Source: Candidatus Poribacteria bacterium
Lineage (GTDB): Bacteria; Poribacteria; WGA-4E; WGA-3G
Reading direction: 5' to 3'
NCBI GenBank assembly: GCA_965205015.1
Contig: OZ242029.1
Location: 1,824,001 to 1,888,000 of the forward strand
DNA: 64,000 nucleotides
Shown: piece after piece, positions 6,956 to 60,378 of the stretch
How the letters are laid out: the number at the start of each line of letters is the position of its first letter
How positions within the stretch are numbered: position 1 is the first letter of the stretch
The notes under the pieces: generated by a model
Databases searched by the model: none
What the model was told of the DNA's origin: nothing
Seen by the model: the letters and a program-made list of their open reading frames with translations, nothing else
Translations under genes and position numbers: made by a program

Positions 6956-6959
6956 ATTA

Positions 6960-33256: not shown

Positions 33257-33280
33257 GTAGCATAAACTTTTAGTTTGTGC
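33257..33280. repeat. GTAG-type REP (same family as 30333)
   Basis: GTAGCATAAACTTTTAGTTTGTGC. Confidence 0.6.
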
Positions 33281-33447
33281 AGTTTTATGGTGGAGCCCAA
33301 AAACAGATAGACCCTTTCCCGTTGAAACCAAAAACGCAGCCTGCAACAATACGCAGAAATGCCCAAGCAAAAACACGCAGGCGACTCGAACACGAAGACC
33401 ACTAAAGTTCTAAATTCTGCTACTTATCCGCAAGGTAAATTAAAAAT

Positions 33448-39250: not shown

Positions 39251-39316
39251 ATGCTCTTGACGGGGAAGGCTATCTATGGTATCCTACTCGTATCTTGAAT
39301 TGTTTGGAGTTATCCA

Positions 39317-43132: not shown

Positions 43133-43165
43133 GAGCGATCTTTCCTCACTATGCTATCTCGTAGG

Positions 43166-43189
43166 GCACAAGCTAACAGTTTGTGCTAC
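43166..43189. repeat. GTAG-type REP (same family as 30366-30390)
   Basis: GCACAAGCTAACAGTTTGTGCTAC between convergent genes. Confidence 0.65.
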
Positions 43190-43200
43190 AAAAAATTGCT

Positions 43201-43911: not shown

Positions 43912-44060
43912 TGGATCTGTTCCTTTATTTTTACTCGTAGAACGAGATAAATTCATTGGCAAATATTCATCTCTTACCATGGTTCTTTACGCTGTAAGAC
44001 TTTTTGAATACTGAGGTTGTACCATGCTATGTCCTAAATATCGAATGCTTTTGTCCTACT

Positions 44061-44627: not shown

Positions 44628-44630
44628 GTG

Positions 44631-45752
44631 TTATTTCCTCTTGTTTAAAATTTGTCGTAGACTCTGGGCGATGATTTCTACCTCTCCGGGCATTAGCGTT
44701 TGTCCATTGATAATAATACCGTTTTCTCCTGCGCTTGGAAGGTCAATCGAGGGCTCACCGTCTGCGAGTTGCTGAAGGATTTCGTTCCGTGTGATACCGA
44801 GGTGTTCTGCATCAAATCGGATTTCAGTGCGGGGCATCGGTTGTCCGGCTTCGGAAGGGAAGATACGATGGACGGTAACGCCTTGGATATCCGAGAACGC
44901 TTCGTCGTAGTAGGTAACCTGATCCTCGTAGGATTGCTGTAATTTGTCGTGGTCTTGATCCAGATACCATTCAACAGCGGTAAGGAGTCCTACCAACTCT
45001 TCTTTCCCCACCTTCATTCCCCTGCCGATGAAAGGATGTGGGGGTCCGTTGAAAGCGATAGCCTCAATCAACGATTTTTTTCCCACAATTAACCCACTAC
45101 TCTGCGGTCCGTGCAACCCTTTCCCGCCGCTAAAGAGTGCCAAATCAGCACCCATCTGCGTGAAACGCCATAAGTTTTCAGGGGGTGGTAATTGTGCTGC
45201 GGCATCAACGATGAGGGGAATATTATGCCTTTTCGCAATCGAGATGGCTTCCTCATAAGGCACCCAGAGGTGTTCTCTACTGGGGTTTGCGAAGTAGAAG
45301 ATCGCAGCGGTCTTTTCCGTAATGGCGTTCTCTAACGCATCGGGGGTTGTTCCCTTTTCATCACCTATCTCTACGAAAGTGACACCAACCTGCCGAACGG
45401 CGTAATCGTATCCGACCCGACCGTGACGATGCACAATGACTTCACTTTTCATTGAGGGATCAAGGTGCGGCAATTTTTCGCGTTTATCTGAGTCAAGTCC
45501 GGTGATACACGCCGCAGTGCTGAGGGTCAAAGCAGCGGCAGCACCGCAGGAGACATACGCCGCTTCGTTGTGGGTGAGTTTCGCAATCTCTTCCCCGACC
45601 CGTTTTTGGAGTTCAATGATGTCTACAAAATGCTTGGCAGCGTCCGCCATCGCCGCTATGACCTCGGGGGGCATGATCGAACCACCGAGCCGTGTGAGCG
45701 TCGCATTACCGTTGATGACTGTGCGAATACCTAAGCGTTTGTAAATGCTCAT
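44631..45752 (-). CDS. SelA-like/DgaE-family PLP-dependent enzyme
   Basis: VINGNATLTRLGGS; VDAAAQLPP; FSGGKGLHGPQSSG (PLP lysine); IGRGMKVGKEE. Confidence 0.85.
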   Translation of the reverse strand: MSIYKRLGIRTVINGNATLTRLGGSIMPPEVIAAMADAAKHFVDIIELQKRVGEEIAKLTHNEAAYVSCGAAAALTLSTAACITGLDSDKREKLPHLDPSMKSEVIVHRHGRVGYDYAVRQVGVTFVEIGDEKGTTPDALENAITEKTAAIFYFANPSREHLWVPYEEAISIAKRHNIPLIVDAAAQLPPPENLWRFTQMGADLALFSGGKGLHGPQSSGLIVGKKSLIEAIAFNGPPHPFIGRGMKVGKEELVGLLTAVEWYLDQDHDKLQQSYEDQVTYYDEAFSDIQGVTVHRIFPSEAGQPMPRTEIRFDAEHLGITRNEILQQLADGEPSIDLPSAGENGIIINGQTLMPGEVEIIAQSLRQILNKRK

Positions 45753-45757
45753 TTGAA

Positions 45758-45860
45758 TGGTTATCGGAAACTATCAGTTTTCAGCAAAAGGATCTTGCGG
45801 CAGTTATGCAACTTTTATATGCTACACACTGGCTGCCGACTGCCGACTGCTGATAACTAT
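45758..45860. repeat. Heptamer inverted-repeat intergenic element
   Basis: ggttatcgg/atcagttttcag left arm; ctgccga-ctgccga-ctgctga-taact right arm. Confidence 0.55.
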
Positions 45861-46673
45861 CTATCCAACCTCTTCACCATCTAATTTGCCGACGTGGAGA
45901 TCGATCTCATCGCGCGACTCAATCTTGTCGACCTTACCGTCTGCCATGTGGAAAATACGGTCAGAGACATCTAACATCTTGTGATCGTGTGTTGCGGTGA
46001 TGATGGTTACGCCGTTTTCAGCATTGAGTCGACGGAGGAGGGCGATGATTTCGAGTCCGGTTTTGGTGTCCAAGTTTCCAGTCGGTTCATCGGCGAGAAC
46101 GATTGCGGGATCGTTTGCGAGCGAGCGTGCAATCGCAACACGCTGTTGTTGTCCACCGGAGAGTTCTAACGGCTTGTGTTGCACGCGGTCACCGAGTCCG
46201 ACGAGTGTAAGGAGGTCAACGCCTTTCTCTCTGCTTTCGTCGGCACTCATACCCGCGAAGATCATCGGAAGTGAAACGTTTTCGAGTGCCGTCATAACTG
46301 GGATGAGATTGAACGATTGAAAGATATAGCCGATCTTCCGGCAGCGAAGCCATGCGAGTTCATACGCGTCAAGTTGTGCGATGTCCACCTCATCAATGTA
46401 GACTCTGCCCTCGGTCGGTTTGTCTAAACCACCAATCATGTTGAAAAGTGTCGATTTCCCTGAACCGGAGGGACCCATAATAGAGATGTACTCGCCGCGC
46501 TGGATTTGGAAATTGACGCCACGGAGGGCATCGACGGTCTGTGTTCCCATCTCATATCGCTTGATAAGGTTCCGGACGCGAACCGTATTTTCCTTAGGGA
46601 GAACGCGTTGAAACTTTTCCGGAGTTTCGGAGAGAATGGCATTAACATCGCCGATTTCTGTTGGTATATTCAT
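45861..46673 (-). CDS. ABC transporter ATP-binding protein (LolD/MacB type)
   Basis: GPSGSGKST; LSGGQQQRVAIAR; LADEPTGNLD; ATHD. Confidence 0.94.
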   Translation of the reverse strand: MNIPTEIGDVNAILSETPEKFQRVLPKENTVRVRNLIKRYEMGTQTVDALRGVNFQIQRGEYISIMGPSGSGKSTLFNMIGGLDKPTEGRVYIDEVDIAQLDAYELAWLRCRKIGYIFQSFNLIPVMTALENVSLPMIFAGMSADESREKGVDLLTLVGLGDRVQHKPLELSGGQQQRVAIARSLANDPAIVLADEPTGNLDTKTGLEIIALLRRLNAENGVTIITATHDHKMLDVSDRIFHMADGKVDKIESRDEIDLHVGKLDGEEVG

Positions 46674-46788
46674 TTTTTTCTCCTTTAGTGGTTATTGGCA
46701 GTCGGCTATCGAAAACCATCAGCCAGAGGGACTTGTGGTAGGGGAGAGCGTTTGCAGCTGCGCTGACCACTAATCGTCATTGCGTTAC

Positions 46789-47256
46789 TTACCGTCTCTG
46801 TAGGAATCCAAAAATACCCTGTTTTTCAGGTTCGGGTTCGGGCGTTACGGGAGCGTTCTGTTGAGGGTTCGGAATGGCGAACCCGATGAAATTCCGTTTG
46901 CCAAGCTGCTGCATAAATGTAAACAGGGACGTTTCCGCTTCTTTCCGGGTCAACTGGTACTGGTTTTGGACCCCCTTTATAATCTGTGAGATGGTATGCT
47001 TACCGTCGCACATCTGCCACACATAAGTTCCGATGGAATCTAATACGATAACCCTTTTATTGGGGAGCATAAAAAGTTTACTGGCGAGTCGGATCCAGAG
47101 TTTGTCTTTCTGGGGAACAACGAGTGAGGCTTCGCCTTTGTCGTCTAGCTCCCAATTTATCAACTGGTTCCGAACAGGAAACGACTTCATGATCCGAGTC
47201 CGATCCATATCCGGACGTTTCTTAAGTTTGAGAGCGTATAAAATTCTGTTTAGCAT
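46789..47256 (-). CDS. PqqD-family (RiPP recognition element-like) protein
   Basis: LDSIGTYVWQMCDGKHTISQII...FMQQLGKRNFI winged-helix signature. Start ATG 47256. Confidence 0.8.
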   Translation of the reverse strand: MLNRILYALKLKKRPDMDRTRIMKSFPVRNQLINWELDDKGEASLVVPQKDKLWIRLASKLFMLPNKRVIVLDSIGTYVWQMCDGKHTISQIIKGVQNQYQLTRKEAETSLFTFMQQLGKRNFIGFAIPNPQQNAPVTPEPEPEKQGIFGFLQRR

Positions 47257-47338
47257 AATGGTTGTCAGTGCGGATTTTTTTTCGCAAGAAAAACCCGGTG
47301 AATGCCACACGGCATTCATACCGTTGATTCACCGAAAA

Positions 47339-48436
47339 CTATCCGTGGTATTGAATACTTTCAGCAACTTTTTGCACGGTCGAACGCGCATCGGTACTGC
47401 CGATCGACTGGATAACATAGATACGATTAGACTGATTGCATCGCCATAGATGGAACACAAGGGCTGTTCTCTTGGATAACTTATCAAGCATCAGCACGGG
47501 ACTGAATGGCACACCATCATAGAGCCGTGTTTGTTCCCCAATGAGTGTCAAACGCTCATTATCTGAATCTGTCTCGGATGTTACTTCAAACCCGTAGCCA
47601 CGAATCGCTTTTGCGTATTTGGTACGAAACCATGCCTCTAATGGGTTTGGGGCATCTTTATAGTCGCTCAGCATCACTTCTGCGGGTCCGTATCGCTCCA
47701 CACTCAGTCGTCCTTTGTCGGGGGGTAGGGGGTTTTTGCTTGGGGTTTTTGCTTGGGTATTTTCTGCGGATTTCCCCAAGGTTATCTCACCCCTACCATC
47801 TTCTACAGAACCATTATTCTTTAGACGATTGCTTGCCAGTTTCGCCAGCCGTACTGCACTCTGAAAGGGAACAGGCTTGGCAACGAAGGCAAACAACAGG
47901 TAGCCGCTGAGCAGTTTCTGACGTTCCAACTTGTATTCTTTTGGAACCCCTAACTTAAGCCCGTAGGCACTCCACAATGTCAATGGGGCATCCCCGCGGT
48001 CTGTAATTGATTCAAAAATCCGAAGAACTGTAGGTCGCCAATTCTCCTTGAGCCGTCCCATCACCTGCACGATCGTAATTCGCTTCCCAGTGTGAAAAAT
48101 CAGCCCATTCGCACGAATGCTCCCTTTCCAACTAAAACCGAGAACCGTCCGTCCCTTAAAGAATTCCTCTTCTTTGATGAGATTAACGTTCCGACGAAAG
48201 GAGAGCTCGGTGCCTTTCTTATACGTCTTGCGAATCAGCTTGAAATATTCGTCAAGCGTTGCGTGGAGATCCGGCTTTTTGCGTCGGGTATGCGCCCATT
48301 TGAGTTCAAGGCGAGGCATCTCTGGATCGTCAAGCCGGAGATATCCTGTTTTCTGATCTCCGCTGAGTCCACTCAGTTCCCACGTCGTGGGGATTTCCAG
48401 TTCTATGCCTGCCCACCCAAAAACAGTCCATTCCAT
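47339..48436 (-). CDS. Hypothetical protein, possibly tandem PsbP/DcrB-like domains
   Basis: 365-aa ORF within the operon; internal repeat FGWAGIELEIPTTWEL / WSAYGLKLGVPKEYKL. Confidence 0.65.
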   Translation of the reverse strand: MEWTVFGWAGIELEIPTTWELSGLSGDQKTGYLRLDDPEMPRLELKWAHTRRKKPDLHATLDEYFKLIRKTYKKGTELSFRRNVNLIKEEEFFKGRTVLGFSWKGSIRANGLIFHTGKRITIVQVMGRLKENWRPTVLRIFESITDRGDAPLTLWSAYGLKLGVPKEYKLERQKLLSGYLLFAFVAKPVPFQSAVRLAKLASNRLKNNGSVEDGRGEITLGKSAENTQAKTPSKNPLPPDKGRLSVERYGPAEVMLSDYKDAPNPLEAWFRTKYAKAIRGYGFEVTSETDSDNERLTLIGEQTRLYDGVPFSPVLMLDKLSKRTALVFHLWRCNQSNRIYVIQSIGSTDARSTVQKVAESIQYHG

Positions 48437-48443
48437 TTTTTTA

Positions 48444-48761
48444 TAGTTGTCAGTTATCAGTTGTCAGTTATCAGTTAAGAGAAGGTCCTGTTAAACGAAA
48501 ACTAATGGCTATTCCTAAGTTCTGAGTTTTTTCAGCAAGGCGGTTAACATTTTCTTCACATTGATATTCAAATGAATGATTATCGGTTTTAATAGTTGTT
48601 GGTTCGGTTTTTTCTTGCGAAAAAACCTTTTAGTTGTCAACTGTCAATCCAGAGGGTATCTTGTAACAATCTTCCCGGGTGTTGGAATATTCCAAGTTTT
48701 CGGTGAATTGTTACCCAACACCTCTTGTAACTGACAACTGACAACTGATAACTGACAACTA
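48444..48761. mobile_element. MITE-like element with 34-bp heptamer-built terminal inverted repeats
   Basis: 48444-48477 TAGTTGTCAGTTATCAGTTGTCAGTTATCAGTTA matches the reverse complement of 48728-48761 with one mismatch; no ORF of 60 aa or more inside. Confidence 0.65.
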
Positions 48762-50750
48762 TTAAAACGGTTTGACGATTACGGCTTTAGAGACAAGCGC
48801 AATAGCCACGGTTCCCATACCAATGAGACCGACACCGCAGGCAAATCCTGCTGCAAGTACCGGGTTGTACATATACCAACGCCGCATCCCAAATCGCTTG
48901 ATCATGTAAAACCGTCCAATAACTGCACCGAGCAGCCGTGTAACCATACTTCCTGGATCCGCGCCGATGCCACCAACAATACCGTAGAACCACATGGAGG
49001 GGAGTTTAAATACCCACAACATCCCGTAGATTGCAAGGCTTCCGGTAAACCCGGCGGCCACATAATCCCCTCGAATTGCTTGCAGCATTTGGCTGTTTCC
49101 ATCCCGCAGCGACGTTTTCCAGAGACACTCATTTGTGGCGTTAATCGGCCACATCATCTGTGCGAATGGATACTGCGCACTGGGGATCGGTGCAATCTTC
49201 CAGATAAAGTGCAGCACCACAATTCCACTGACGACCAGAATCGGCATAATCAACAGTGTACCGGCGAGATTTGACGTGAAGGTCGTTCCTGTCAATTCAA
49301 GGACTCGCCAACTCTGTGTGCCGCGCCCGTAATCTTCGTCGGGTAATGGTGCGAACCAGATATCGACCTCTTCATAGCGACTCAAAATGAAGGTAATTTC
49401 GTGTAGATACGGTATCTCAAAGAGGTCGCGTCCCAGCACACCGAAGGTCCGTGCGGTAATATACGAATTGATCGGTGTATACAGGAAAGCGTAACCTAAC
49501 AGGAAACTCAGCGGGAAATTCGGGACCATCCAGTGAATAAGCCATACAAATCCACCCATACCGATGAGCCACATTAATCCCATCAACCATATCGGGAAAT
49601 CACCACGGTTCGGAGGCGGAGCGAAGGTGCCGCGCTCGCCTGCGGTTTTCTGAGCCCTCCGCATTTTAAAGAGCATCGGAATTGAAGCCGCCATCCCTAC
49701 GATTGCGAAACTAAAGGATTTCCCCATGCCGCAACTAATCCAGAAATCCAGTCCGTTGAACAAGCCGACACCCCGGACATCCAAACCCGGCGTCCACTGA
49801 TGGAGAATCTCATACCGGTACAGAATTTGTGGGTTCAAGATAAATTGCGTTGCCATTGCGGCAATGAATTCTGTCATCACAATCGGGAACGGCAACACGA
49901 ACCCGAAGAGCATTTGTCCAAAATCGGTTCGGAACGCGAAAACACCCGTCGGCGCGAAACCTTCGATACTCTGTGTGAAATCTATCCACGGGATCTTCAG
50001 AATCTGAATCGGTTGGCTCATCATCACACCGGTGAGTGAAGGCACACCGATATAGAGGAACCCCCAAATGAGTCCTGCCATAGAGCCGATAGAGAAGACC
50101 CGCCATCGCCAGGTTTCTTCTTTACCTGTCGTTTCTGCAAGCGCCGTTGCCCCCTGCGCACTAATCGGTGCCATCGGATAGGGGAGGCGTTCAAGGTCTG
50201 CCGTAAGTCGGAACAGAATATACTGCCCACTGACAAAACGCAGGGTTCCCAGTAGTTTTCCTGCCAGGTAGATACCGATAGGCAGAAACCAGTCTGGATG
50301 TATAAGACTTCGCGTGAGCACGCCAACGGAATCGCCTGCCGGCACAATCCAATCTGGGATTTTGTCGGCGATTTCGTAGGAAGCTGCCTGTGGCGTGTTA
50401 ACAAAATAGGCGTACCAGATAAAATTCCGGTATTGGAGCCCACTTCCGACAGCCGCACCTGTTAACCCGAGGAGCATATAAAGCTCCTGTCGTCGGGCAG
50501 TTGTAAAGGAACGCCGCGCGAGTTCGGTGAATAGAATAACGGCAACCCAAGGTGCTGCACCAGCACCGGATTCACCGGATACATAACTGAGATAAATGGA
50601 ACCCGGCATCATCAGCAAGCCAACGAAAAGTGCTCCAACAAACACTTTAACTGTTAGTCCCGACTCAAAGGTACGAATACCGCCTTCAATGTCATATCGC
50701 TGTGCCCAAGCTTGCCATTCATCTGCTTGTGATACTCTTTCTCTCGCCAA
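48762..50750 (-). CDS. OPT/DUF6785-like polytopic membrane protein (putative peptide transporter)
   Basis: Many TM helices; WVAVILFTELARR; ERLPYPMAPI; APIPSAQYP. Probable TTG start at 50750 with RBS GAAAGGAG. Confidence 0.75.
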   Translation of the reverse strand: MARERVSQADEWQAWAQRYDIEGGIRTFESGLTVKVFVGALFVGLLMMPGSIYLSYVSGESGAGAAPWVAVILFTELARRSFTTARRQELYMLLGLTGAAVGSGLQYRNFIWYAYFVNTPQAASYEIADKIPDWIVPAGDSVGVLTRSLIHPDWFLPIGIYLAGKLLGTLRFVSGQYILFRLTADLERLPYPMAPISAQGATALAETTGKEETWRWRVFSIGSMAGLIWGFLYIGVPSLTGVMMSQPIQILKIPWIDFTQSIEGFAPTGVFAFRTDFGQMLFGFVLPFPIVMTEFIAAMATQFILNPQILYRYEILHQWTPGLDVRGVGLFNGLDFWISCGMGKSFSFAIVGMAASIPMLFKMRRAQKTAGERGTFAPPPNRGDFPIWLMGLMWLIGMGGFVWLIHWMVPNFPLSFLLGYAFLYTPINSYITARTFGVLGRDLFEIPYLHEITFILSRYEEVDIWFAPLPDEDYGRGTQSWRVLELTGTTFTSNLAGTLLIMPILVVSGIVVLHFIWKIAPIPSAQYPFAQMMWPINATNECLWKTSLRDGNSQMLQAIRGDYVAAGFTGSLAIYGMLWVFKLPSMWFYGIVGGIGADPGSMVTRLLGAVIGRFYMIKRFGMRRWYMYNPVLAAGFACGVGLIGMGTVAIALVSKAVIVKPF

Positions 50751-50769
50751 ATTGAATGTTCTCCTTTCT

Positions 50770-50934
50770 TGACTGTCGGCTATCGGCATATTGGCTGTCG
50801 GCTATCGGCTTTCAGCGAAGAAGGTTTTCGTTTAACGATACCCTCTTAACTGACTGCTGAAAGGGTTTTCGTAGAAAACCCGACCCGACGGCTGATTGCC
50901 AATTGCTGACAGCCATCCTGCTGACTGCTGATGC
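50770..50934. repeat. Heptamer inverted-repeat intergenic element
   Basis: ctgtcgg-ctatcgg...ctgtcgg-ctatcgg-ctttcag left arm; ctgactg-ctga... right arm; internal GGGTTTTC-gta-GAAAACCC hairpin. Confidence 0.6.
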
Positions 50935-51123
50935 TCACTCTTCGCCTGATTCTTCGGTGTCGTCGGTGCTTCGTAGTTCTTCCCAGAAATGCGCACAGAA
51001 AATACCAACTATCAGCACAAGAGCTGAGAACATCTGCCATTGCCAACGCCCTTCAAGGGCGAGAACGCTGAACAGCCATAAGAAGGTGCCAATGATAATA
51101 ATAAGACTTGCTACTTTTTCCAT
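50935..51123 (-). CDS. Small two-TM membrane protein
   Basis: 62 aa with two hydrophobic helices and an acidic tail; lies between operon genes on the same strand. Confidence 0.6.
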   Translation of the reverse strand: MEKVASLIIIIGTFLWLFSVLALEGRWQWQMFSALVLIVGIFCAHFWEELRSTDDTEESGEE

Positions 51124-51245
51124 TATTTTAACTATGATCCCCCAAATAGGGTTCTAAAGTCCGAGTGTAAAGTCTGTAAAGTGTAACGAAAGTGAACTAA
51201 AATTATATTAAACCCAACAACTTTAGTACACTTGTGAACTTTAAT

Positions 51246-54200
51246 TTAATCTGCCGGTGTCGGTACAGGCTCCATCTGTCCTGCTTCTTCTGCCGACGGG
51301 TCCATACCTTCGGTTCTACCGCGTTCATGGAACTCTGCTCGGATATCGACGCTGAATGTCCGCCAAATCAGGAGTTGTTTCCGCAGCAGATTCAGGAAAC
51401 GTCGATTGACCCGCTTCCAAGAGGCGATCTCACCACTCTCACGATGTACATCCAACGTGATTTTGTAGAGATCCTCTTCTTCACCACCGACTGGGGATGT
51501 AACGAACTGAATAGACTGGCTCACACCTAAGTCATAAGGCGCCAACCATACCATCATCCCGATCTGATAGGAGTCTTCGGCTTCTTCTTGGCTGAACGCA
51601 ACCTGGTCCGTATAAAAGTCGCTGGCGGATTCGTCTGCATGTGCCTCAAAATAGTCCCGCATAAAGACGTTCAACCCGAGTGATTCTTCTTCAAGGACGG
51701 TAAAGGGTAAATTAAAGTGCCATACGTCCCCTTCGGGTTCTGGGAGTTTCCATTTACGTTCGATATCAGGGACTGCCATCCGTGAAGCCTTGATTGCCGG
51801 ATACATGGTACTGAGTAAAACGACAAGCATGACAATAATTGTTGCGACGACCGTTGACATTGACGAATAGTTAAGCGTCAATCCAGCGAGCCAACCGAAA
51901 TGCACGAGGGTTGTCGCGATTGCTTGTCCCATGAGATAGCCTAACACCGCACCGACGATGGCGTATACGCATGCCTCCGCAAGGAAGAGGAAGGCGATAT
52001 GCACAGGCGCGAGTCCAACGGAACTGTAGATGCCGATTTCACGGACCCGTTCATAAACGGCGCCAAGCATGGTGTTAAGAACGATAAGCGCGGCGATCAA
52101 GATCGGTACGAATAGGTTACCCATGCCGCTGAAACTCGTCATGCCAATACTACTGTAGAGATATGTGTCTTTATCACGTCCGACAAAGAAGTCAAGAGCG
52201 ATACGGTTCATGAGCGGTGCCATGATAAGGTCTAACTTATCTATTGCGCCTAACAACTGCGGATCATCCTCTCGCGGTTCCATGTTAACAGCAACACTTC
52301 GGAGGGTGCCCCCTTGATTCATAACGACTTGATAAGGGAGAATAGCGACACTGTCTGGCGTGAGATGGAGGTATTTCTGTAATTCGCCTTCAAGCGTCTC
52401 ATCACCAGTGGCACCCCGGCTCCGCTGCTGTTGCATCAGCTGATAATCGACAGGCGTAAGTTCTTCGCCATCGTTATCAGTAAGATCCTTGAAGCCGATA
52501 CCGAGGACACCAACGACAGTAAAATCGGCACCGTAAACAGAGACGGTGGCTTTCCCCATATCGCTTTCGGTGATCTTGAGCAATTCTGCCATTCCTTTGG
52601 GCAGCACAATGGCGTAGGGCCACTCCGTCGGCCATTCATTGGCATCTGCCGGGTCAAACCATTTGCCGTATTGGAGGTATCTATCAATACCGCTAACACC
52701 GGGTTCTGATTCATTCATGCCCACGAGCATGTTTGCCGCGAAGGTCAATGCTTCGCCTGTGAGTGGGTGCGTTGGAGGCGATGTATCTGCTGTGTTTTCC
52801 GTGCGTGTGAGTTGGACAAACGATTGGTCGCCGGTTCCTGAGGATTGATACCATGCGCGCGGTGCGACGACGTTCCGAACGAATAAGACGGATTCTGCGT
52901 CTACCTGTTCAATGAAACCCCCTTCTTTTAAAGTGCTACGCGCTTCCGCAAGGTCAAGCGGTTGTTCGCCTTGCTTGACCAAGAGTTCGTTTTTACGTTC
53001 CAAAAGTCGTTCTAAGGCGGTCAATGTGATTTGCGTCTTTTGCATGTCGTTCAGTACGGAGGTAAGCACCGGTTCCTCAAGTGGACGCCAATACTGGTCA
53101 CGGATGAGGAGACCGGTATAGCGCGGTGTCACTTGTGGAAGGCTCGTTCTGTTCGGGTGCATAAACGTCCGCACAGAGGTAAACGATATAACAGTAAAGG
53201 TAAGGATGACCAACGTACAACACGTCAGGATCGTCCGTCCTTTCCGTTTCCGCATGTTGGAAATACCTAAACTAAATGCAGCAGCACTCGCACTCAACCT
53301 GCCGACATCGGCTTTATAAACTTTACTGCCCTCTTGTCGGATCTTTTCGAGTTGCTCCTCGAATTTCCGGACAATAATACTGATGACGATAACCGTCAAG
53401 GCAAGTACAACAAACGCGATCAGAATAATCACAGGTGTGGTCGTAATCTGGAATGCGGGGTGAACTTGGCTGAGGAAGAAAAATACAAGTAAAAAGATGC
53501 CGAATGAACCCAAAATCTGTTTGTGGATGTTCGGGAAGCCGAAAATGAGCCGTTCCATAAAGTAGGCGAACGGCATCAGTAAGGCGAGGTAGAACATCAC
53601 ACCGTTGACGACATCGTTACCGGTCTGTTTGACGTCTGGGTATGCGCGTGATTCATAACCCCACGCGGCGCGGGCGAGTTTGAGTGCCTGTTGATAGTCG
53701 CTTTGGAGTAATTCGGTCTCCGCACGTGCAAGGTAATCGTTCGCAAATTGGTGGAGTTTGTCAAGCCGGTCACTGGAGATACCAAACCGTTTGTAAAGTC
53801 GTGAGCGGTTCTCATCGAGCCACCACATATCTCGGACAACGACGTACGGCGTGAGACGAATTTGTCCGTTTTCGCGGACGACGAAACCCTCACCGGTATA
53901 AAGCGTCGGGTTCTTCATACCGCTTTTCGTTGCTTTGATGAGAAGGAGACGTTTACCAATCTGTCCGTATGCCATTCCAACTTTGATGCGCGTGTTGGGT
54001 TCGCTATACACGAGTGCAATAGGTTCGGCTGCGGACACACCTTCCTGCTGCCACGGTTTGGACATCCCGAACTTCTCCGGCGCACTATCCGTGAGCGCAT
54101 CATAAACTTCGAGTTCCCGCAAGGTTCGCAGGTACCGTTGATCCACTAAGTCGTAGATCGTTGTAGATACACACGGAAATGTAACAACACGGCAACCGCG

Positions 54201-57200
54201 CCTACGGGTGTTGATCGGAATTTTGTTCGGAAGTAGTTTCGCACCGTAATTCCCGAGATCAGGGGCATAGACGATGTCGCCTGAATCCTTGTCAAGAATG
54301 TATGCTTCAACCTCTTGTGCACCACCGAGACGCCGTGTAGCTCTACCTTCCATTGCTAATCCGGCGACCTCAAAGTTACCCTTGTTATCGCCCATCACAA
54401 ACAGGTCTCCACGGACCCCCATCATGGTTTTGTGTTTCCTGCGGAGCGTCAAAATCGGGTAAGGCACCGGTTTATTCGGTAGTGCGGATTCACGTGCGTC
54501 AAATTCAACAACATCACCGAAGAGGTTGCAGTAGAAATTCCCGACACGTGCCGCGGTGGGCATCTCTTCATCTCGAAGGGCTTGGATGAGTAACGATGCC
54601 AATGTCTGTGCTTGCTGATGGAGGTTACCACCTTCGCGCAAATCAACGCGTTCAATCGTATCGAGGGGGGTGTCCGTTAAGACGCGGGCATCTTCAATGG
54701 TTGCAAAAGCGATGCCAGTCTTTCCGACAAGCGTGGCGACCTCGCTATCAAAAGCAATTTTACCTGGGATATAAGTCTTCCACGTCTTTCCACCGCTTGC
54801 GGAGATGGCGTTAACGAAATTTGACTCACCGCCGAGACCCGCAATCGAAATGAGAGTTTTAATATCCTCAATTTCTTCATCGGAGAAGGTGTCCGGATCT
54901 TCATGACGAAGTCGGAGCATGGCGTCCAACTGTTCACGTGTACGGATGTTATTCTTTCGATTCTTCTTTGCAGTGCGGACATCATTTCGGATGAAACGCT
55001 CGACCTCTTTACGGATGTAATCCATATCTTTGAGCATATCCTCAGAGGGTTCACCTTGATTGCGCCACTGTTCAAACTGCATCTTCATCAGTCGGCTCAC
55101 TCCGCTGAGGCCGGTGAGTTTATTGAAGTGCGAACTCAATAGCGTTTCAAGCGTCTTTCCTTCGAGTGCCGCTTTATCAGATATCCCGTTTGCAACCGTC
55201 CATTGACGTGCCATAACGGCTTGGCGAATTTGATCGTCTGTCCACTGCCAAAGTTTCCTGACACGGACACCAAAATCGGCATCTTCAGCGTAAGAGGCAA
55301 GTTTATTGCCGATGCTCGCAAACTCGCGACGTAATACAAATTCGGGTTGCTGATCGTAGAACCATCCCTTGTTGAACACCCCGAACTGATTCGACTGTGA
55401 GGAGAGGTCAATGCTAATATAGAGAGAGGTATAATACCGGTTGAATAGGTCTTGTAGGGCGATTGCCGCCTCGATCTGTCCGAGTTTTCGGTTGTATTCA
55501 TCGGTATCAATACGCAACATCTTTTCAATACGACTCTGGATGTTACGGAAACGTGCGTTGCGAAGCGTTAACATGTTATCGCGTAGAAGCACTTTGGTCT
55601 CTGCATCCAAATCGGTGTCTAATGTGGGTAACCGTTCAATGAGGTTTTCGAGTGCTACGATATCCGTATCGGCGCGATTTTTAACGATCGTTAACAATTC
55701 TTTTTCGCTAATCTGTGATGCGATGCGTAAGCGCAACGAAAGTGCTTGTTCAACTTCATCATCCGATAGGTAGTTTTCCAAAATGAGACGTTCTTCATCC
55801 AAGTATTCCCGACCTAACGTCCCCGATGTTGCGATCAAAGTCTGAATACGCGTGCGTTCCAATCGGGCATTCCGGAGTGCAATTTCAAAGATACCTTGTT
55901 TATCTTTAAGAAGATCTGCTATCAATACGGCAACATCAGTTGTATCTCCAGATTCGGCTAATCTCTGTCGCAGCTGGGTATCGATCGTGTTGAGACGTTC
56001 TATCCCGGCTTTCGACAAAAATTGACCGCCATAAATCAAAGAATCACCGCCCGATTTTCCCATCGGCGTTTCCTTGAGTCGGCGAATGCTCGCTTTAACC
56101 TCATTTTCAACGGGTTGGCTATCAGGTATTTGTGCCAGAACCTTTTCAAGGAGCTGAACCTCTCGCTGAATCGCTGCTGCTTGGGTGTCGTTGGCATCGC
56201 GTAAAACACTGCGTGCCTCTTTCGCTGTATTGAGTGAGTGTAGGTCGAGATGCCGGTCAAGTATCTTCTCAGGTGTCCACATCAGTGCAAATTTGCGTTT
56301 GTCGCTCATCTCCCAGTTTGCGAGGGTTTTGTTAAGCATCTCGATATCAGCGATGAGTTCTTGCGGAAGATCATTCGGTATTGGGATGTGCCAGTCTGAG
56401 CCCTGTTGCACCGGAATAAGATAGGCGTCATTCGGGTGCGTATTGTATTCGTCGGTACTGCCGGTCTCCACCGCGTGAATGAGTTTCTCAACCGCCCATA
56501 TATCAAGACGCGCAATCGGCAGTCCAAGCGTTTCAATCAATTCGCGCTGTGCGGATCGGCTCGTATTGAGGGCAACACCACGAACCTCAGCTAACCTACC
56601 GACAATATCTCGGAGGAAATGTGTCGTTTGCAAAGCTTCTTTCTTCGAGCGGGCAAGATTTGCTAATAAACGGCTCTTCTCTTCACCTGTGAAGCCTTGC
56701 TTTTCGCGTTTTCGATTCCTGTCTGCCTGCTTCTTCTGGCGTTCTGAAAAGTCACGCTGTTGCTCCGTAAGAGATTCAATCTCAGATCGTGTTTTTGACA
56801 AGCCGTCCAGTGTAGTTGCGAGAGAGTCTAAGTCAGACTTTACGTTGTGTATACCGTGGAAAAAGTCAGCCGGGAGATCGACAAGAACGCTCCGGTCAAT
56901 GGAGAGCAAAAGCCTTCTGCCCAACTCTTCAAATTCAAGGACATCTGTAGAAAGACCACGGCGAAGTCCGTGCATTGTGGGGGTGCCGGGTGAATCGGTG
57001 TCGGAACCGACGATATCTTGTCCAATACCTTCCATAAAGGCACGCATGCCGGCAAGCCCTTGGAAGTGTCCATCGACTGCAACAAAGAGGACAGAATAGC
57101 CGGGCCGATATTGGGGCTGACTAAAAAGACGCGCGAGTTCCATGAGGGTCGCGATACCACACGTTGGATCAGCACCGGGTGCCATGGCGGGAACGACCGA

Positions 57201-58574
57201 CATTGAGTCGTAATAAGCTGTGAGAACAATCAGTTCATCGCGTAAAGTTGGGTCTCCGCCTTCCAAAAATCCGCGTATATTTTGCCCGACACGGCGCTCC
57301 CACGTCATCTTCCCTCTTATACGAACATTAACTTGACTCCCTTCCGCCTGTTGTGCCGTCATCAAATTGGTGAGGACAGCAGCATCTTCTTTAGAAATCC
57401 AAAATCGCGGTATATTAGCGGGGACGGTACCGAACTTATTTTCTGCTTCTCCTCGAATGGTTGTGTCGGGTTCGATAAAGATGACAGCAGTGCCACCGAG
57501 CATTGCCGCATTGATATAACGAGTGCTGGAGTTAAAATCAAGAAGAACGATTGCCCCTTTCGGGATAAATATGTGTGATTCACTCGCAGCAACAAACTCG
57601 CCGGACTCATCGACTTGTCCATCGTTGTTGTTATCGATGCCATCAGTGTCATCCCCTGGGATTTCATCTGTCCAGCCATCGGCATCGTTATCAATGCCAT
57701 CTGTTGCCCATCCTAAGATTTCAGAGAGCAGAGGGATTTCACCGTACTCATCAATAGTGCCATCCTCGTCATTGTCGATGCCATCGGATGCTTTTTGTAG
57801 GTGTTCATTAAGTATATCATCGGTGATACTGGCGTCGGTGATACGATAACGTCGGGCGAGTGTTGTGAGTGTGTCCCCATCTTGGAGTTTATGCCAAAAT
57901 CCACCAATATTCGTGCCGTTGAAATCAGCAAGTTCGGCATCATCGCCGTAAAGGAGGGGACCAGATAAACCTCCTGTCGGAATAAACACCGTGCTTCCTT
58001 CGACAACTGGCGTCGCCAGAAATTGGTTCCGCTCGTCTGCAAGGATAGTCGTCTCGTCAATATGGTAACTTTCTGCGATGTCTTTGAGTGTTTCTCCTGC
58101 CAATACAGTGTGTTTAATGCCGTCTGCTAATAGAGAGGTCCGCACAAGGTTGGGCCAGAGGGGAGTGAGTTTAAAGGCGTGTAGCACATTGGCTTCCGGT
58201 GAGAGGACTTCAATGATGCTATCACCGTGGTCGATCGGCACGGTGACGGAAAATTCGCGACTTTCCACGTTCTGCAAACCGGTTTCGACGAAACGATCAA
58301 AAATGTATTTGCTTCCACTCGCAGCTTGAGGATAACCCGTTACACGACTGTCGAGACTTGAGAGGCGTGCAAGGTCCTTTCGAATGTTGCCGATAGAGAG
58401 GTCATCCCGAATCTGGATGGCTGCAGATTGCATGCCGGTACTGGGAATTGCTTGTGCGTATGCAGTATCGGATAGTTGCCCAGCGACGAGCAAAACCGAA
58501 AGAAAAAACATTAATACATTTGTGAACGCACTGAAGAGCCGCTCGCGGCACTCGGGTCTACTATGAATTTTCAT
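51246..58574 (-). CDS. 2442-aa fusion: signal peptide, degenerate M28 (nicalin/nicastrin-like) domain with LysM x2, DGIDN acidic repeats and helical insert, and two FtsX-like permease modules
   Basis: SRVTGYP; LysM-like HTVLAGETLKDIA and HKLQDGDTLTTLAR; DGIDNDxDG x3; IVLTAYYDS...PGAD...LMELARLFS; FSLGISNMRKRKGRT; LNTMLGAVYERVREIGIYSSVGLAP...FLAEA; YPAIKAS. Confidence 0.85.
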   Translation of the reverse strand: MKIHSRPECRERLFSAFTNVLMFFLSVLLVAGQLSDTAYAQAIPSTGMQSAAIQIRDDLSIGNIRKDLARLSSLDSRVTGYPQAASGSKYIFDRFVETGLQNVESREFSVTVPIDHGDSIIEVLSPEANVLHAFKLTPLWPNLVRTSLLADGIKHTVLAGETLKDIAESYHIDETTILADERNQFLATPVVEGSTVFIPTGGLSGPLLYGDDAELADFNGTNIGGFWHKLQDGDTLTTLARRYRITDASITDDILNEHLQKASDGIDNDEDGTIDEYGEIPLLSEILGWATDGIDNDADGWTDEIPGDDTDGIDNNNDGQVDESGEFVAASESHIFIPKGAIVLLDFNSSTRYINAAMLGGTAVIFIEPDTTIRGEAENKFGTVPANIPRFWISKEDAAVLTNLMTAQQAEGSQVNVRIRGKMTWERRVGQNIRGFLEGGDPTLRDELIVLTAYYDSMSVVPAMAPGADPTCGIATLMELARLFSQPQYRPGYSVLFVAVDGHFQGLAGMRAFMEGIGQDIVGSDTDSPGTPTMHGLRRGLSTDVLEFEELGRRLLLSIDRSVLVDLPADFFHGIHNVKSDLDSLATTLDGLSKTRSEIESLTEQQRDFSERQKKQADRNRKREKQGFTGEEKSRLLANLARSKKEALQTTHFLRDIVGRLAEVRGVALNTSRSAQRELIETLGLPIARLDIWAVEKLIHAVETGSTDEYNTHPNDAYLIPVQQGSDWHIPIPNDLPQELIADIEMLNKTLANWEMSDKRKFALMWTPEKILDRHLDLHSLNTAKEARSVLRDANDTQAAAIQREVQLLEKVLAQIPDSQPVENEVKASIRRLKETPMGKSGGDSLIYGGQFLSKAGIERLNTIDTQLRQRLAESGDTTDVAVLIADLLKDKQGIFEIALRNARLERTRIQTLIATSGTLGREYLDEERLILENYLSDDEVEQALSLRLRIASQISEKELLTIVKNRADTDIVALENLIERLPTLDTDLDAETKVLLRDNMLTLRNARFRNIQSRIEKMLRIDTDEYNRKLGQIEAAIALQDLFNRYYTSLYISIDLSSQSNQFGVFNKGWFYDQQPEFVLRREFASIGNKLASYAEDADFGVRVRKLWQWTDDQIRQAVMARQWTVANGISDKAALEGKTLETLLSSHFNKLTGLSGVSRLMKMQFEQWRNQGEPSEDMLKDMDYIRKEVERFIRNDVRTAKKNRKNNIRTREQLDAMLRLRHEDPDTFSDEEIEDIKTLISIAGLGGESNFVNAISASGGKTWKTYIPGKIAFDSEVATLVGKTGIAFATIEDARVLTDTPLDTIERVDLREGGNLHQQAQTLASLLIQALRDEEMPTAARVGNFYCNLFGDVVEFDARESALPNKPVPYPILTLRRKHKTMMGVRGDLFVMGDNKGNFEVAGLAMEGRATRRLGGAQEVEAYILDKDSGDIVYAPDLGNYGAKLLPNKIPINTRRRGCRVVTFPCVSTTIYDLVDQRYLRTLRELEVYDALTDSAPEKFGMSKPWQQEGVSAAEPIALVYSEPNTRIKVGMAYGQIGKRLLLIKATKSGMKNPTLYTGEGFVVRENGQIRLTPYVVVRDMWWLDENRSRLYKRFGISSDRLDKLHQFANDYLARAETELLQSDYQQALKLARAAWGYESRAYPDVKQTGNDVVNGVMFYLALLMPFAYFMERLIFGFPNIHKQILGSFGIFLLVFFFLSQVHPAFQITTTPVIILIAFVVLALTVIVISIIVRKFEEQLEKIRQEGSKVYKADVGRLSASAAAFSLGISNMRKRKGRTILTCCTLVILTFTVISFTSVRTFMHPNRTSLPQVTPRYTGLLIRDQYWRPLEEPVLTSVLNDMQKTQITLTALERLLERKNELLVKQGEQPLDLAEARSTLKEGGFIEQVDAESVLFVRNVVAPRAWYQSSGTGDQSFVQLTRTENTADTSPPTHPLTGEALTFAANMLVGMNESEPGVSGIDRYLQYGKWFDPADANEWPTEWPYAIVLPKGMAELLKITESDMGKATVSVYGADFTVVGVLGIGFKDLTDNDGEELTPVDYQLMQQQRSRGATGDETLEGELQKYLHLTPDSVAILPYQVVMNQGGTLRSVAVNMEPREDDPQLLGAIDKLDLIMAPLMNRIALDFFVGRDKDTYLYSSIGMTSFSGMGNLFVPILIAALIVLNTMLGAVYERVREIGIYSSVGLAPVHIAFLFLAEACVYAIVGAVLGYLMGQAIATTLVHFGWLAGLTLNYSSMSTVVATIIVMLVVLLSTMYPAIKASRMAVPDIERKWKLPEPEGDVWHFNLPFTVLEEESLGLNVFMRDYFEAHADESASDFYTDQVAFSQEEAEDSYQIGMMVWLAPYDLGVSQSIQFVTSPVGGEEEDLYKITLDVHRESGEIASWKRVNRRFLNLLRKQLLIWRTFSVDIRAEFHERGRTEGMDPSAEEAGQMEPVPTPAD

Positions 58575-58678
58575 GTTGTGAAGTCTCCCGCCTTTTTCTG
58601 GTTTTTCAGATTTTCTCCCCGCCGCATAGATTCCTATGTTCGGAGCCTACTGGCGTAGTTTTGGGAGGCAATATTTAT

Positions 58679-58748
58679 ATTGTATACTATTATTGCAATT
58701 TTTGTCAAATTAAAAAAATTTGCATTTAAGGCTTTTTTAGGTTAAAAT
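58679..58748. promoter_or_regulatory. Back-to-back divergent sigma70 promoters
   Basis: Minus: TTGACA (58708-58703) with TACAAT (58684-58679). Plus: TTGCAT (58720)-N17-TAAAAT (58743). Confidence 0.5.
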
Positions 58749-58878
58749 ATATTTCACGCTTTTGCCTCTCATTGAAGCAGAATCCTCTTCAAACTACATT
58801 TCACTGCAATACTAAAAAATTTCAAAAAAAATCAGCAGCAGTCCAACCCTAATCTTGCTGCCTGATAAGGAGCCAAAC

Positions 58879-59238
58879 GTGGGCAAAGAATCAAGAGACT
58901 CAAATACAGACAAAGTCGTCTCACGTATAAAACTACGTCGCCACGAACTGAAGTTGACACAAACAGAACTTGCGAAAGTGGCGAATCTAACACCTGCGGC
59001 GATCTCCCAATTTGAATCAGGAGCCCGGAAACCGTCGTTTAAAACACTTTCAAGTCTTTCCGATGCTCTAAAAGTCACTACCGATTACCTACTTGGAAAA
59101 GCCGACAAAAGTTACGATGATCTTTTAGCCGACCCAAAGATTAGTGCTATGTTCAAGGGGATGATGGAATTTACGGAAAAAGATAAGGAAACGCTCTACG
59201 AGTTCTATGAATTTCTTAAGGTGAAAGCCAACCAGTGA
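58879..59238 (+). CDS. XRE-family HTH transcriptional regulator
   Basis: LTQTELAKVANLTPAAISQFESGARKPS...TDYLLG. GTG start with RBS AAGGAG. Confidence 0.9.
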   Translation: MGKESRDSNTDKVVSRIKLRRHELKLTQTELAKVANLTPAAISQFESGARKPSFKTLSSLSDALKVTTDYLLGKADKSYDDLLADPKISAMFKGMMEFTEKDKETLYEFYEFLKVKANQ

Positions 59239-59316
59239 TTATTGTGATTTACTATGATGATGCGGCCTCCGAGAATCAAGGTAAATCAGATAATCCGTTA
59301 AATCATAGTTCAGACT

Positions 59317-60378
59317 TTAATCGTCAGTTATTCTTGGACAGAGGCAGATTTTTCCGAAATTTTGGCGGTTCTCTAATAGCAGGTGTGCCTCACCCGCACG
59401 ATGGAGCGGTAAAACTCTGTCAATAATAGGTTCCAATTTTCCCTGTCCAGCGAGATAGACAAGCGTTCGGAGTTCAGCGACTGTCCCGAGGGCAGAGCCC
59501 ATCAGTGTTAACTGCTTTTGATACATCTTTCGGATGTTAATTGTGCCAATGTTGCCTGTTGTCACACCACACGAAACAAGTCTCCCATTTTTAGCAAGAC
59601 TCGCAATGCTCTGATCCCATGTTGCAGCCCCGACATGCTCAAGGACAACATCCACACCGCGTCCGTTGGTTATATTAAGCACGATCTCCGAAAAATCTCT
59701 GTCTTTATAGTTAATTGTAACATCTGCACCCATCTGCCGGGCACGTTCAAGTTTCTCATCACTGCTCGCTGTCGCAAAAACTCTGGCACCCGTTAATTTT
59801 GCGATTTGTAGTCCTGCACTTCCGACACCGCCCCCTACACCGAGAATTAAAACATCGTCCTCTGGACGAAGTTGTGCACGCGTCATGAGCATATGCCATG
59901 CGGTGAGATACGCTATCGGTATCGCAGCGGCGTTAACGAATGACAGGGTTTCTGATGGGAGCTGAATAGCGTTTTGGGCAGGGGCTTTTACGTATTCTGC
60001 GTATCCGCCATTTGTTTGGAAACCGATGAGTTCTTGCGTGTCACACAAGTTTTCGGCACCGCGATAACAGTCGCTACAGATGCCACACGGGATGCAGGGT
60101 GCGAGAACGACTCGATCCCCGACCGCAACACCGCGGACTGCAGCCCCAATTTCGGCGATTGTTCCAGCGATGTCGGAACCGAGTATATGGGGCGTATCCC
60201 CTCGACGGAGTTTTGCTTCTATCTCAGGCCGGTTCCGCCGGGCATGGATGTCCAGATAGTTCACCGCACAGGCTTCGACTTTAACCAGCACCTCATCGGT
60301 ATCAAGCGTTGGTTTAGGGACATCCGTGTACTGAAGAACCTCCGCACTGCCTTGTTCTGAGAAAACGATTGCTTGCAT
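59317..60378 (-). CDS. Zinc-binding alcohol dehydrogenase/quinone oxidoreductase (MDR family)
   Basis: ILGSDIAG; structural Zn CGICSDC...C; GVGGGVG; GKI. Start ATG 60378. Confidence 0.9.
   Translation of the reverse strand: MQAIVFSEQGSAEVLQYTDVPKPTLDTDEVLVKVEACAVNYLDIHARRNRPEIEAKLRRGDTPHILGSDIAGTIAEIGAAVRGVAVGDRVVLAPCIPCGICSDCYRGAENLCDTQELIGFQTNGGYAEYVKAPAQNAIQLPSETLSFVNAAAIPIAYLTAWHMLMTRAQLRPEDDVLILGVGGGVGSAGLQIAKLTGARVFATASSDEKLERARQMGADVTINYKDRDFSEIVLNITNGRGVDVVLEHVGAATWDQSIASLAKNGRLVSCGVTTGNIGTINIRKMYQKQLTLMGSALGTVAELRTLVYLAGQGKLEPIIDRVLPLHRAGEAHLLLENRQNFGKICLCPRITDD

Follow-up and report, generated by a model that had tools for sequence, protein, structure and literature searches.

A giant FtsX-type ABC permease and predicted OPT-fold membrane proteins share a gene cassette, and very probably one envelope machine, in Poribacteria and other phyla

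The window analysed here is a stretch of 64,000 nucleotides from a Candidatus Poribacteria bacterium (assembly GCA_965205015.1, contig OZ242029.1, positions 1,824,001 to 1,888,000), and the coordinates given below are positions in this window unless another locus is named. Between 45861 and 58574 it carries six genes that the original prediction had described as a single envelope machine which captures, translocates and hands over a peptide or protein substrate. The question raised by this locus is whether such a mixture of genes, headed by a giant protein with peptidase-like and permease domains, belongs to one system and what this system could do. It is very probable that the cassette encodes one conserved envelope machine, in which a type VII (MacB/FtsX-type) ATP-binding cassette (ABC) motor is combined with OPT-fold membrane proteins; the whole reading, with uptake as its direction and with its class of cargo, stands at even chances or slightly below. 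The six minus-strand open reading frames (ORFs) were confirmed by an ORF check, with the shared orientation and the coordinates proposed for them. The intergenic gaps are short (3-145 nt), with the exception of a 325-nt spacer ahead of the fourth gene, which encodes a protein of 365 amino acids (aa). The genes are the following:

51246 to 58574, minus strand: giant permease of 2442 aa (ORF, Pfam, hydropathy)
50935 to 51123, minus strand: 62-aa protein with two transmembrane (TM) segments (ORF, hydropathy)
48762 to 50789, minus strand: predicted OPT-fold membrane protein of 675 aa, 'P0002 family' (AlphaFold2 (AF2) model and Foldseek)
47339 to 48436, minus strand: 365-aa soluble protein of no known family (no TM segment)
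46789 to 47319, minus strand: PqqD-fold protein (Pfam PqqD, 44.6 bits)
45861 to 46673, minus strand: ABC ATPase of the MacB/LolD/FtsE type (ABC_tran, 120.8 bits)

Gene neighbourhoods were compared in 80 Poribacteria loci and 80 loci from outside the Poribacteria, all related to the 675-aa gene; the Poribacteria loci are the best 80 relatives of the 675-aa protein, with 86-97% identity. The giant is found upstream of the OPT-fold gene in 78/80 Poribacteria loci and in 46/80 of the others, and loci of this kind are present in Armatimonadota, WS1, Gemmatimonadota, Latescibacterota, Brocadiia, Desantisbacteria, Verrucomicrobiota and Abditibacteria. This arrangement is far beyond chance. Of the 34 non-Poribacteria loci that show no giant upstream, nine have too short an upstream sequence (under 5 kb) for a judgement. 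The downstream genes recur as well, since the OPT-fold gene is followed by a 365-aa homolog and a PqqD gene, in this order, in a Verrucomicrobiota locus (L152) and a Latescibacterota locus (L196), the 365-aa homolog of the latter being recognised by hhalign at 99.8% (E = 3.7e-28). The Desantisbacteria cassette (L143) opens with a PqqD gene, and PqqD is present in the cassettes of four phyla. Among the 80 non-Poribacteria loci, a 365-aa homolog was detected in five and a PqqD gene in two, plus L196. Five of the six genes are a cassette recurring across phyla, and the idea of one conserved unit is supported by this synteny. The sixth, the 62-aa gene, does not belong to it as had been proposed: its hidden Markov model matches in 80/80 Poribacteria loci and in 0/80 of the other loci, so this gene is specific to Poribacteria.

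Moreover, the comparison revealed two further conserved partners. One is a DUF6785/DUF6784 membrane protein of ~640-880 aa, encoded beside the giant in six loci (L136, L140, L142, L143, L152 and L201). The other is a small FtsX protein (223-270 aa) with its own ATPase: L083, L094 and L143 carry these two genes in this order ahead of the giant, and a 524-aa FtsX protein occupies the place of the small FtsX in L201. Both partners were overlooked in the original prediction because they are outside this operon in Poribacteria. In the related complete Poribacteria chromosome from which the genome-wide counts were taken (G001, whose cassette ATPase is 99% identical to that of the window), the small FtsX and a second ATPase are encoded as a pair of their own, at a great distance from the cassette.

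The proposal of a single envelope machine is strongly supported by a natural fusion between the giant and the OPT superfamily and by a matching phyletic profile; the peptide or protein cargo that formed part of the same proposal was not borne out. Concerning the fusion, a Latescibacterota chromosome contains one uninterrupted ORF of 2118 aa with M28, MacB_PCD, FtsX, DUF6785 and DUF6784. A database search with the DUF6785 part of this fusion among long proteins retrieved 34 protein clusters, 53-98% identical and from four source collections, all of them with FtsX and DUF6785, and 27 of them 2086-2161 aa long. Separate genes are also kept together within single genomes. All four cassettes of the Verrucomicrobiota genome G004 are ordered DUF6785, giant, OPT-fold gene, and in the Latescibacterota genome G006 a same-strand DUF6785 gene accompanies each of the seven giants at a distance of no more than 5 kb, in one case as a fusion; an OPT-fold gene of the 675-aa family is also present at five of these seven. 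Regarding the phyletic profile, 61 evenly drawn Verrucomicrobiota genomes were sampled. The identical nine genomes contain the 675-aa family, DUF6785 and the small FtsX, with their genes together on the same contigs, and the outer domain of the giant occurs in eight of these nine, the ninth cassette having a gap of the right size. The other 52 genomes are without all four families. As a separate observation on these cassettes, a gene of the Fic/DOC family (L200, 10067-11086) separates the giant from the DUF6785 gene that accompanies it in one of the seven cassettes of G006.

The following parts were distinguished in the giant permease:

56895 to 57587, minus strand: PA + M28-like putative pseudo-aminopeptidase core, residues ~330-560 (Pfam, profile and fold match)
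54825 to 56897, minus strand: charged insertion of ~690 aa, residues ~560-1250, Poribacteria-specific (composition, tblastn)
51804 to 53234, minus strand: FtsX-type module, residues 1781-2257 (TM5, MacB-PCD-like outer domain 2, TM6-8)
51249 to 51767, minus strand: cytoplasmic C-terminal domain, residues 2270-2442 (conserved, no known family)

Hydropathy, which was used for all TM predictions, gives eight TM segments in a 1 + 3 + 1 + 3 arrangement. The N-terminal half consists of an anchor (residues 13-31), outer domain 1 (~32-1654) and three TM segments (1655-1734), and the C-terminal half of one TM segment (1781-1799), outer domain 2 (~1800-2154), three FtsX TM segments (2155-2257) and the cytoplasmic C-terminal domain. 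Pfam recognised LysM (residues 155-179, 25.8 bits), a partial Peptidase_M28 (432-515, 32.9 bits) and FtsX (2156-2266, 47.9 bits vs a cut-off of 25.5), the last of which is likewise present in the homologs. The signals for PA (338-399, 17.5 bits) and MacB_PCD (PF12704; 1948-2048, 18.4 bits) remained under their cut-offs, which is 27 bits for MacB_PCD, and the latter domain scores 24.7 bits in the fused Latescibacterota homolog. The FtsX-type module is the best-conserved part of the giant across phyla (53-68% identity by tblastn). The giant had been described as a LysM/M28/double-FtsX protein. LysM, M28 and one FtsX domain stood, and the second FtsX did not, as the first 1 + 3 set of TM segments shows no profile similarity to the FtsX set (TM2-4 vs TM6-8, hhalign probability 0.06). 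"Double FtsX" is therefore a statement on topology only, and the sequence reveals no more than one FtsX domain.

At E ≤ 1e-3, 1584 representative proteins share the C-terminal domain of the giant, and in the full-length matches (1450-3050 aa) it is always placed C-terminally. A complex prediction for this domain and the OPT-fold protein gave an ipSAE of 0.00 in two runs with no controls, and weighs neither way. Some other parts of the giant are peculiar to the Poribacteria form. The homologs in 41 non-Poribacteria loci have 1454-1867 aa, being 600-1000 aa shorter; the charged insertion, in which E, K, R, D, Q and L make up 0.49 of the residues, has weak or no tblastn matches outside Poribacteria, and LysM with the Asp-rich repeats (residues ~150-330) is also specific to this form.

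The M28 domain named in the original prediction lies in outer domain 1. Homology to the M28 peptidases is clear, with a family profile that finds the aminopeptidase 2ek8 (E = 2.3e-15) and Nicalin (E = 6.7e-8) among PDB sequences. A model of the domain built from 12 shorter homologs (pLDDT 80.9, pTM 0.84) matches the PA-bearing M28 aminopeptidases over its first ~450 residues (2ek8 with E = 1e-21 in Foldseek, BSAP, PaAP), followed by the transferrin receptor and glutamate carboxypeptidase II/III (GCPII) as the next-best fold matches. Beyond the PA/M28 core, the model shows beta-sandwich domains and a three-helix stalk. The active site was surveyed in 115 giants, 74 from Poribacteria and 41 from other phyla. 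The position of the catalytic Glu is Gly or Ala in 115/115, so a working peptidase is not borne out, and the neighbouring zinc-ligand Glu position is His in 115/115. The first zinc-ligand His position holds Tyr in 100 giants, His in nine, Phe in five and Ser in one. The bridging Asp position is Glu or Asp in 114/115, the second ligand Asp is kept as Asp in all 115, and the last zinc-ligand His was judged by alignment alone. The domain thus has the fold and the homology of M28 and lacks the co-catalytic zinc ligands and the catalytic Glu of this family. Since the acidic residue is found in 114, the His in 115 and the Asp in 115 of the 115 homologs, the pocket is conserved, and to judge from these residues outer domain 1 appears to be a pseudo-peptidase with a remodelled pocket and not a decayed domain. 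This could be a remodelled metal or ligand site, and a ligand-binding role is likely by analogy with the transferrin receptor and Nicalin.

Regarding the 675-aa protein, the call as OPT-like is upheld at the level of the fold. An AF2 model made on 22 sequences (pLDDT 77.5, pTM 0.78) has barley Yellow Stripe 1 (7wst and 7wsr, probability 1.00) as the only Foldseek matches in the PDB at E ≤ 1e-3, with E = 1.5e-9, TM scores of 0.59/0.65 and ~14% identity, and this model predicts an OPT fold. The protein has no Pfam match, and 0/17 aligned relatives match Pfam OPT even at E ≤ 1. One member of the family in Verrucomicrobiota (L201, 12016-14046) passes Pfam OPT (PF03169) with 38.6 vs 25.8 bits, and 5 of the 120 homologs listed carry this domain. 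The family has at least 1373 homologs, some of which, from Armatimonadota, Latescibacteria and Firestonebacteria, are named "peptide transporter" by their sources. The relatives are ~662 aa long, and the true start of the 675-aa protein may be a few codons downstream. The complete Poribacteria chromosome has one copy of this family. PDB sequence searches with alignments of the 675-aa family and of DUF6785 gave nothing usable. HtpG, the best PDB match of alignment A7 (E = 0.23), was taken as chance.

The ATPase, which has no TM segment, is of the MacB/LolD/FtsE type, in agreement with its earlier description as LolD-type. Its top NCBIfam models are LolD, DarD, DevA, YbbA, MacB and FtsE (212-236 bits), of which LolD is the best with 236.4 bits vs a cut-off of 307.75. 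Cassette-linked ATPases are 59-77% identical to one another across five phyla. The PqqD-fold protein, also without a TM segment, carries the Pfam domain (PF05402, cut-off 23.4 bits) at residues 84-145, and its true start may be internal; the six NCBIfam PqqD models were all under cut-off, the best with 38.1 vs 100. This domain had been expected to bind the substrate, which was not borne out. The view that this is not a cluster for a ribosomally synthesised and post-translationally modified peptide (RiPP) was correct for the operon and for the foreign cassettes: none of the 16 ORFs between 39317 and 63869, which were scanned with Pfam, is a radical SAM, YcaO, maturase or precursor gene, and cassettes L143, L152 and L196 hold no such gene either. 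The 365-aa protein has nothing in Pfam or NCBIfam, and its conserved part is formed by the N-terminal ~200 aa; in the ESM Atlas it falls only into unnamed clusters, from Poribacteria and Armatimonadota. The 62-aa protein has two hydrophobic segments and no Pfam or NCBIfam match. It was also observed that a FtsW/RodA (SEDS) gene directly precedes the 365-aa homolog in the WS1/Zipacnadia-type loci L083 (14147-16314), L081, L085 and L088, in whose genomes this pair sits a few kb downstream of the cassette.

The copy numbers of the partners are unequal, and DUF6785 is strongly expanded. The six genomes examined gave the following counts:

G001, Poribacteria: 32 DUF6785 hits, 1 giant
G002, Armatimonadota: 29 DUF6785 hits, 2 giants
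G003, Desantisbacteria: 5 DUF6785 hits, 1 giant
G004, Verrucomicrobiota: 4 DUF6785 hits, 4 giants
G005, Brocadiia: 9 DUF6785 hits, 1 giant
G006, Latescibacterota: 78 DUF6785 hits, 7 giants

DUF6785 had no hits in 14 control genomes. ATPases at least 60% identical to that of the window number two in G001, one in G002, two in G004, one in G005 and one in G006, where the only cognate ATPase adjoins the small FtsX gene. These copy numbers suggest that one motor may be shared among many membrane clients. The majority of DUF6785 copies are solitary, and in Poribacteria there is no FtsX hit within 10 kb of a DUF6785 copy. At 8/20 Poribacteria DUF6785 loci the adjoining genes are of sulfatase, sugar-acid or similar type (sulfatase, GFO/IDH/MocA, xylose-isomerase-like, enolase-superfamily, lactonase, PhyH and glycosidase-like).

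Considering these parts together, a mechanism can be proposed. A cytoplasmic ATPase dimer would drive the giant FtsX-type permease, for which the small FtsX may serve as a second FtsX module. The dead PA/M28 domain would capture an extracytoplasmic ligand, most likely a peptide-like oligomer, and ATP-driven movement would hand it to the OPT-fold translocators (the 675-aa family and DUF6785/DUF6784) for uptake, with the PqqD-fold and 365-aa proteins as putative cytoplasmic accessories. Uptake of a peptide-like oligomer is favoured because OPT proteins (TC 2.A.67) are known as importers, because the pocket is conserved, because the system is multiplied within genomes as nutrient systems are and because of the gene types at the 8/20 DUF6785 neighbourhoods. 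From the combination of these features we infer a physical complex in Poribacteria, the direction of import, the nature of the cargo and the service of one motor to many OPT-fold proteins.

Several results weigh against this proposal. Among the non-Poribacteria loci, 25/80 have the OPT-fold gene and at least 5 kb of upstream DNA with no giant, and the fusion of the giant with DUF6785 is seen in only one Latescibacterota-like lineage. The nine positive Verrucomicrobiota genomes may be kin, so that they would represent few independent events. A profile comparison of the 675-aa family with DUF6785 was not significant (hhalign E = 0.54), the kinship of the two resting on language-model neighbours only, and the Poribacteria cassette has no DUF6785 gene within 10 kb. 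The neighbours of 20 DUF6785 copies and 11 cassettes are mixed, with no constant hydrolase or regulator. Furthermore, no type VII ABC system is known to import or to work with an OPT-fold protein, and a PqqD-fold protein in the cytoplasm would agree with a cytoplasmic peptide being exported no less than with import.

Export is, in fact, the alternative that deserves most attention, and we consider it unlikely. In such a machine, the OPT-fold protein would move a cytoplasmic peptide or small molecule out, with PqqD as its chaperone, in the way that RiPP recognition elements attend to leader peptides, and the giant pushing or presenting the cargo in the periplasm or on the cell surface. The PqqD-fold gene in the cassettes of four phyla would fit this role, known MacB-type systems expel periplasmic substrates, and the ATPase obtains 218.8 bits on the darobactin-export model, which has a cut-off of 375. 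However, PqqD is missing from most cassettes (found in 2/80 non-Poribacteria loci, plus L196), neither the operon nor the cassettes examined contain a precursor, maturase, membrane-fusion protein or TolC-like gene, and OPT proteins are, as far as known, importers; paralogous cassettes and up to 78 DUF6785 copies also resemble nutrient uptake more. At the opposite end, it is highly improbable that there is no machine at all and that a stand-alone OPT-type importer stays beside an unrelated ABC system by descent. The solitary position of most DUF6785 copies and the 25/80 non-Poribacteria loci with an OPT-fold gene and no giant upstream would be explained in this way, but a natural fusion in 34 protein clusters, an order kept across at least eight phyla and the presence of three families in the identical 9/61 genomes, with the giant in eight, would not.

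Two other explanations accept a machine and give it a different task. The giant could be an envelope regulator comparable to FtsEX, whose dead-peptidase domain controls wall or surface hydrolases and whose OPT-fold partners recycle the released peptides. A pseudo-enzyme outer domain on an FtsX permease has its parallel in FtsEX-EnvC, where LytM is inactive, and both the LysM of the Poribacteria form (25.8 bits) and the position of the 365-aa homolog directly behind a FtsW/RodA gene in WS1-type loci would agree with work on the cell wall. Nevertheless, LysM and the long charged insertion are Poribacteria-specific, no gene for an amidase or hydrolase recurs constantly among the neighbours, and neither 4-7 paralogous cassettes per genome nor absence from 52/61 Verrucomicrobiota genomes would be expected of a housekeeping wall regulator, which makes this function improbable. 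Less credible still is a Lol-like extractor, a permease that, like LolCDE, pulls a lipid-anchored molecule from the outer leaflet of the inner membrane and passes it on, while OPT-fold proteins supply or flip the substrate. The best NCBIfam models are indeed LolC for the FtsX module and LolD for the ATPase, and the two unequal halves of the giant resemble LolC/LolE in topology. However, these scores are far under the cut-offs (30.3 vs 473 and 236.4 vs 307.75), the cassettes examined have no LolA/LolB-like gene and lipid flipping is not known for the OPT fold.

The reading as an uptake machine can be taken one step further. The two OPT-fold families could depend obligately, as clients, on a type VII ABC mechanotransducer and form with it a new transporter class, a tentative idea that we regard as rather doubtful. 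If true, a shared ATPase/small-FtsX motor and receptor-bearing giants would power many substrate-specific OPT-fold translocators, and the new class would explain why Poribacteria, Latescibacterota, Armatimonadota and allies have 4-78 copies of DUF6785 in a genome.

Concerning the transcription of the operon, two further features are relevant:

58679 to 58708, minus strand: promoter-like site (TTGACA, 18-nt spacer, TACAAT; 11/12 consensus matches)
48437 to 48761, minus strand: spacer of 325 nt between the OPT-fold gene and the 365-aa gene, of variable length among Poribacteria strains

The promoter-like site is a consensus match only and lies ~105 nt upstream of the ATG of the giant gene. With the exception of this strong site, neither the terminator scan nor the promoter scan exceeded what shuffled sequences gave (17 promoter-like sites found in the region vs 20.0 expected), and an Rfam scan of 43000-59400, spacer included, gave zero matches. 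Contigs from four metatranscriptome libraries of three studies cover 27-29 of 30 bins in 43000-59400. Most of them are 90-95% alike to the window, and to judge from this similarity they probably come mostly from related strains. One contig spans the 3' end of the giant and the 62-aa gene. Many contigs of relatives break with unrelated loose ends at 48444-48767, and among the contigs listed none spans the spacer in the form of the window; relatives differ in the start of the gene that follows it. Such contigs are a weak sign that relatives of the operon are expressed in sponges, as assembled contigs cannot reveal strand, transcript ends or a single transcript, and DNA carry-over is possible.

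The surroundings of the operon are partly variable. A 188-aa ORF (44061-44627, minus strand) lies between genes for a DgaE-like pyridoxal phosphate enzyme and a metallo-beta-lactamase-fold hydrolase, with a weak DUF4152 signal under cut-off. It has tblastn matches in 0/80 related Poribacteria loci, in which the flanking genes are conserved in 66 and 69/80, and it looks like a strain-specific insertion. At 36290-43132 (plus strand), an Eco57I-type restriction-modification methylase of 986 aa precedes a 1271-aa protein without Pfam or NCBIfam match, whose gene is in only 5/80 related loci. This segment may be a variable defence island beside the operon. A further DNA methylase is encoded at 63087-63869. 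An ordinary 411-aa MacB_PCD + FtsX permease (29012-30247, plus strand) lies between two GFO/IDH/MocA oxidoreductases with no adjacent ATPase, and downstream of it there are two ABC-2 permeases and an ABC ATPase (31514-34464). In addition, an iron-uptake-type cluster (1351-9376, minus strand) includes a TonB-dependent receptor with a CarboxypepD_reg domain, a di-haem oxidoreductase (DHOR), an imelysin (Peptidase_M75) and a siderophore-interacting protein. The secreted proteins encoded at 24007-27862 (plus strand), with cohesin, spondin-N and FlgD-Ig domains and with dockerin and reeler domains, contain eukaryote-like or cellulosome-like modules typical of sponge symbionts.

In the current general view, the mechanical work of type VII ABC systems is done outside the membrane and involves no transmembrane pathway, and OPT proteins act as secondary carriers on their own. 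The fixed genetic pairing of the two, fusions included, suggests an undescribed hybrid transport mechanism. The system is widespread, with 1584 representative proteins that contain the C-terminal domain of the giant and at least 1373 of the OPT-fold family, and it is concentrated in uncultured, ecologically important heterotrophs, sponge symbionts and phyla of sediment and soil, in whose genomes few membrane families are as expanded as its DUF6785 partners. Solving this system would annotate thousands of "hypothetical" genes and could reveal how these organisms feed. The statement that no characterised system has this composition agrees with the full-text literature searches, in which supplements are not covered and which turned up neither such a system nor a published description of the cassette or of DUF6785/DUF6784.

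Among known systems, the type VII ABC systems (MacAB-TolC, LolCDE, FtsEX) are compared first. They share with this cassette the FtsX-type TM domain and the separate MacB/LolD/FtsE-type ATPase, and the giant resembles them in a large outer domain flanked by TM segments, where MacB_PCD scores weakly and under its cut-off. They differ in that the giant has eight TM segments in one chain, with only one half recognisable as FtsX, an outer domain 1 of 800-1650 aa with a PA/M28 fold and, in the cytoplasm, a conserved C-terminal domain that belongs to no known family. Moreover, OPT-fold partners are constant here, even fused, and genes for a membrane-fusion protein, TolC, LolA or EnvC-type proteins are absent from the cassette. 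The scores remain far below the equivalog cut-offs of LolCDE (LolC 30.3 vs 473, lolCE 16.9 vs 362, LolD 236.4 vs 307.75), of MacAB-TolC (MacB 28.5 vs 966, with no HlyD-type gene among the 16 ORFs scanned) and of FtsEX (FtsE 212.4 vs 264.85, FtsX_actino 21.3 vs 250), a system that works through an inactive-peptidase domain. The PqqD-fold domain is shared with RiPP recognition elements, here in no named subfamily and with no maturase or precursor nearby.

The 675-aa protein is predicted to share its fold with the OPT/Yellow Stripe-like proteins (PF03169; barley YS1, 7wst), a superfamily characterised by the proton-coupled uptake of oligopeptides or metal chelates, and differs from them in that its family is genetically tied to an ABC motor, a tie that is not known for OPT proteins. 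Outer domain 1 can be compared with the transferrin receptor, Nicalin and nicastrin, which have the same PA/M28 fold and order of domains; in the transferrin receptor and Nicalin the catalytic machinery is likewise lost. These two have receptor roles, and GCPII and YwaD/BSAP are the active cousins of such ectodomains. The giant is distinguished from them by being bacterial and fused to FtsX and by the residues that it keeps at the old metal site, a His and an Asp without exception and an acidic residue almost without exception. Finally, the copy-number logic of one motor for many membrane partners is analogous to that of the energy-coupling factor (ECF) and TonB-ExbBD systems, whose parts are not homologous to those described here. 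With 7 giants and 78 DUF6785 hits in the Latescibacterota genome, or 1 giant and 32 DUF6785 hits in Poribacteria, the counts suggest by this analogy that one ATPase/small-FtsX pair per genome could be shared as a motor among many OPT-fold partners.

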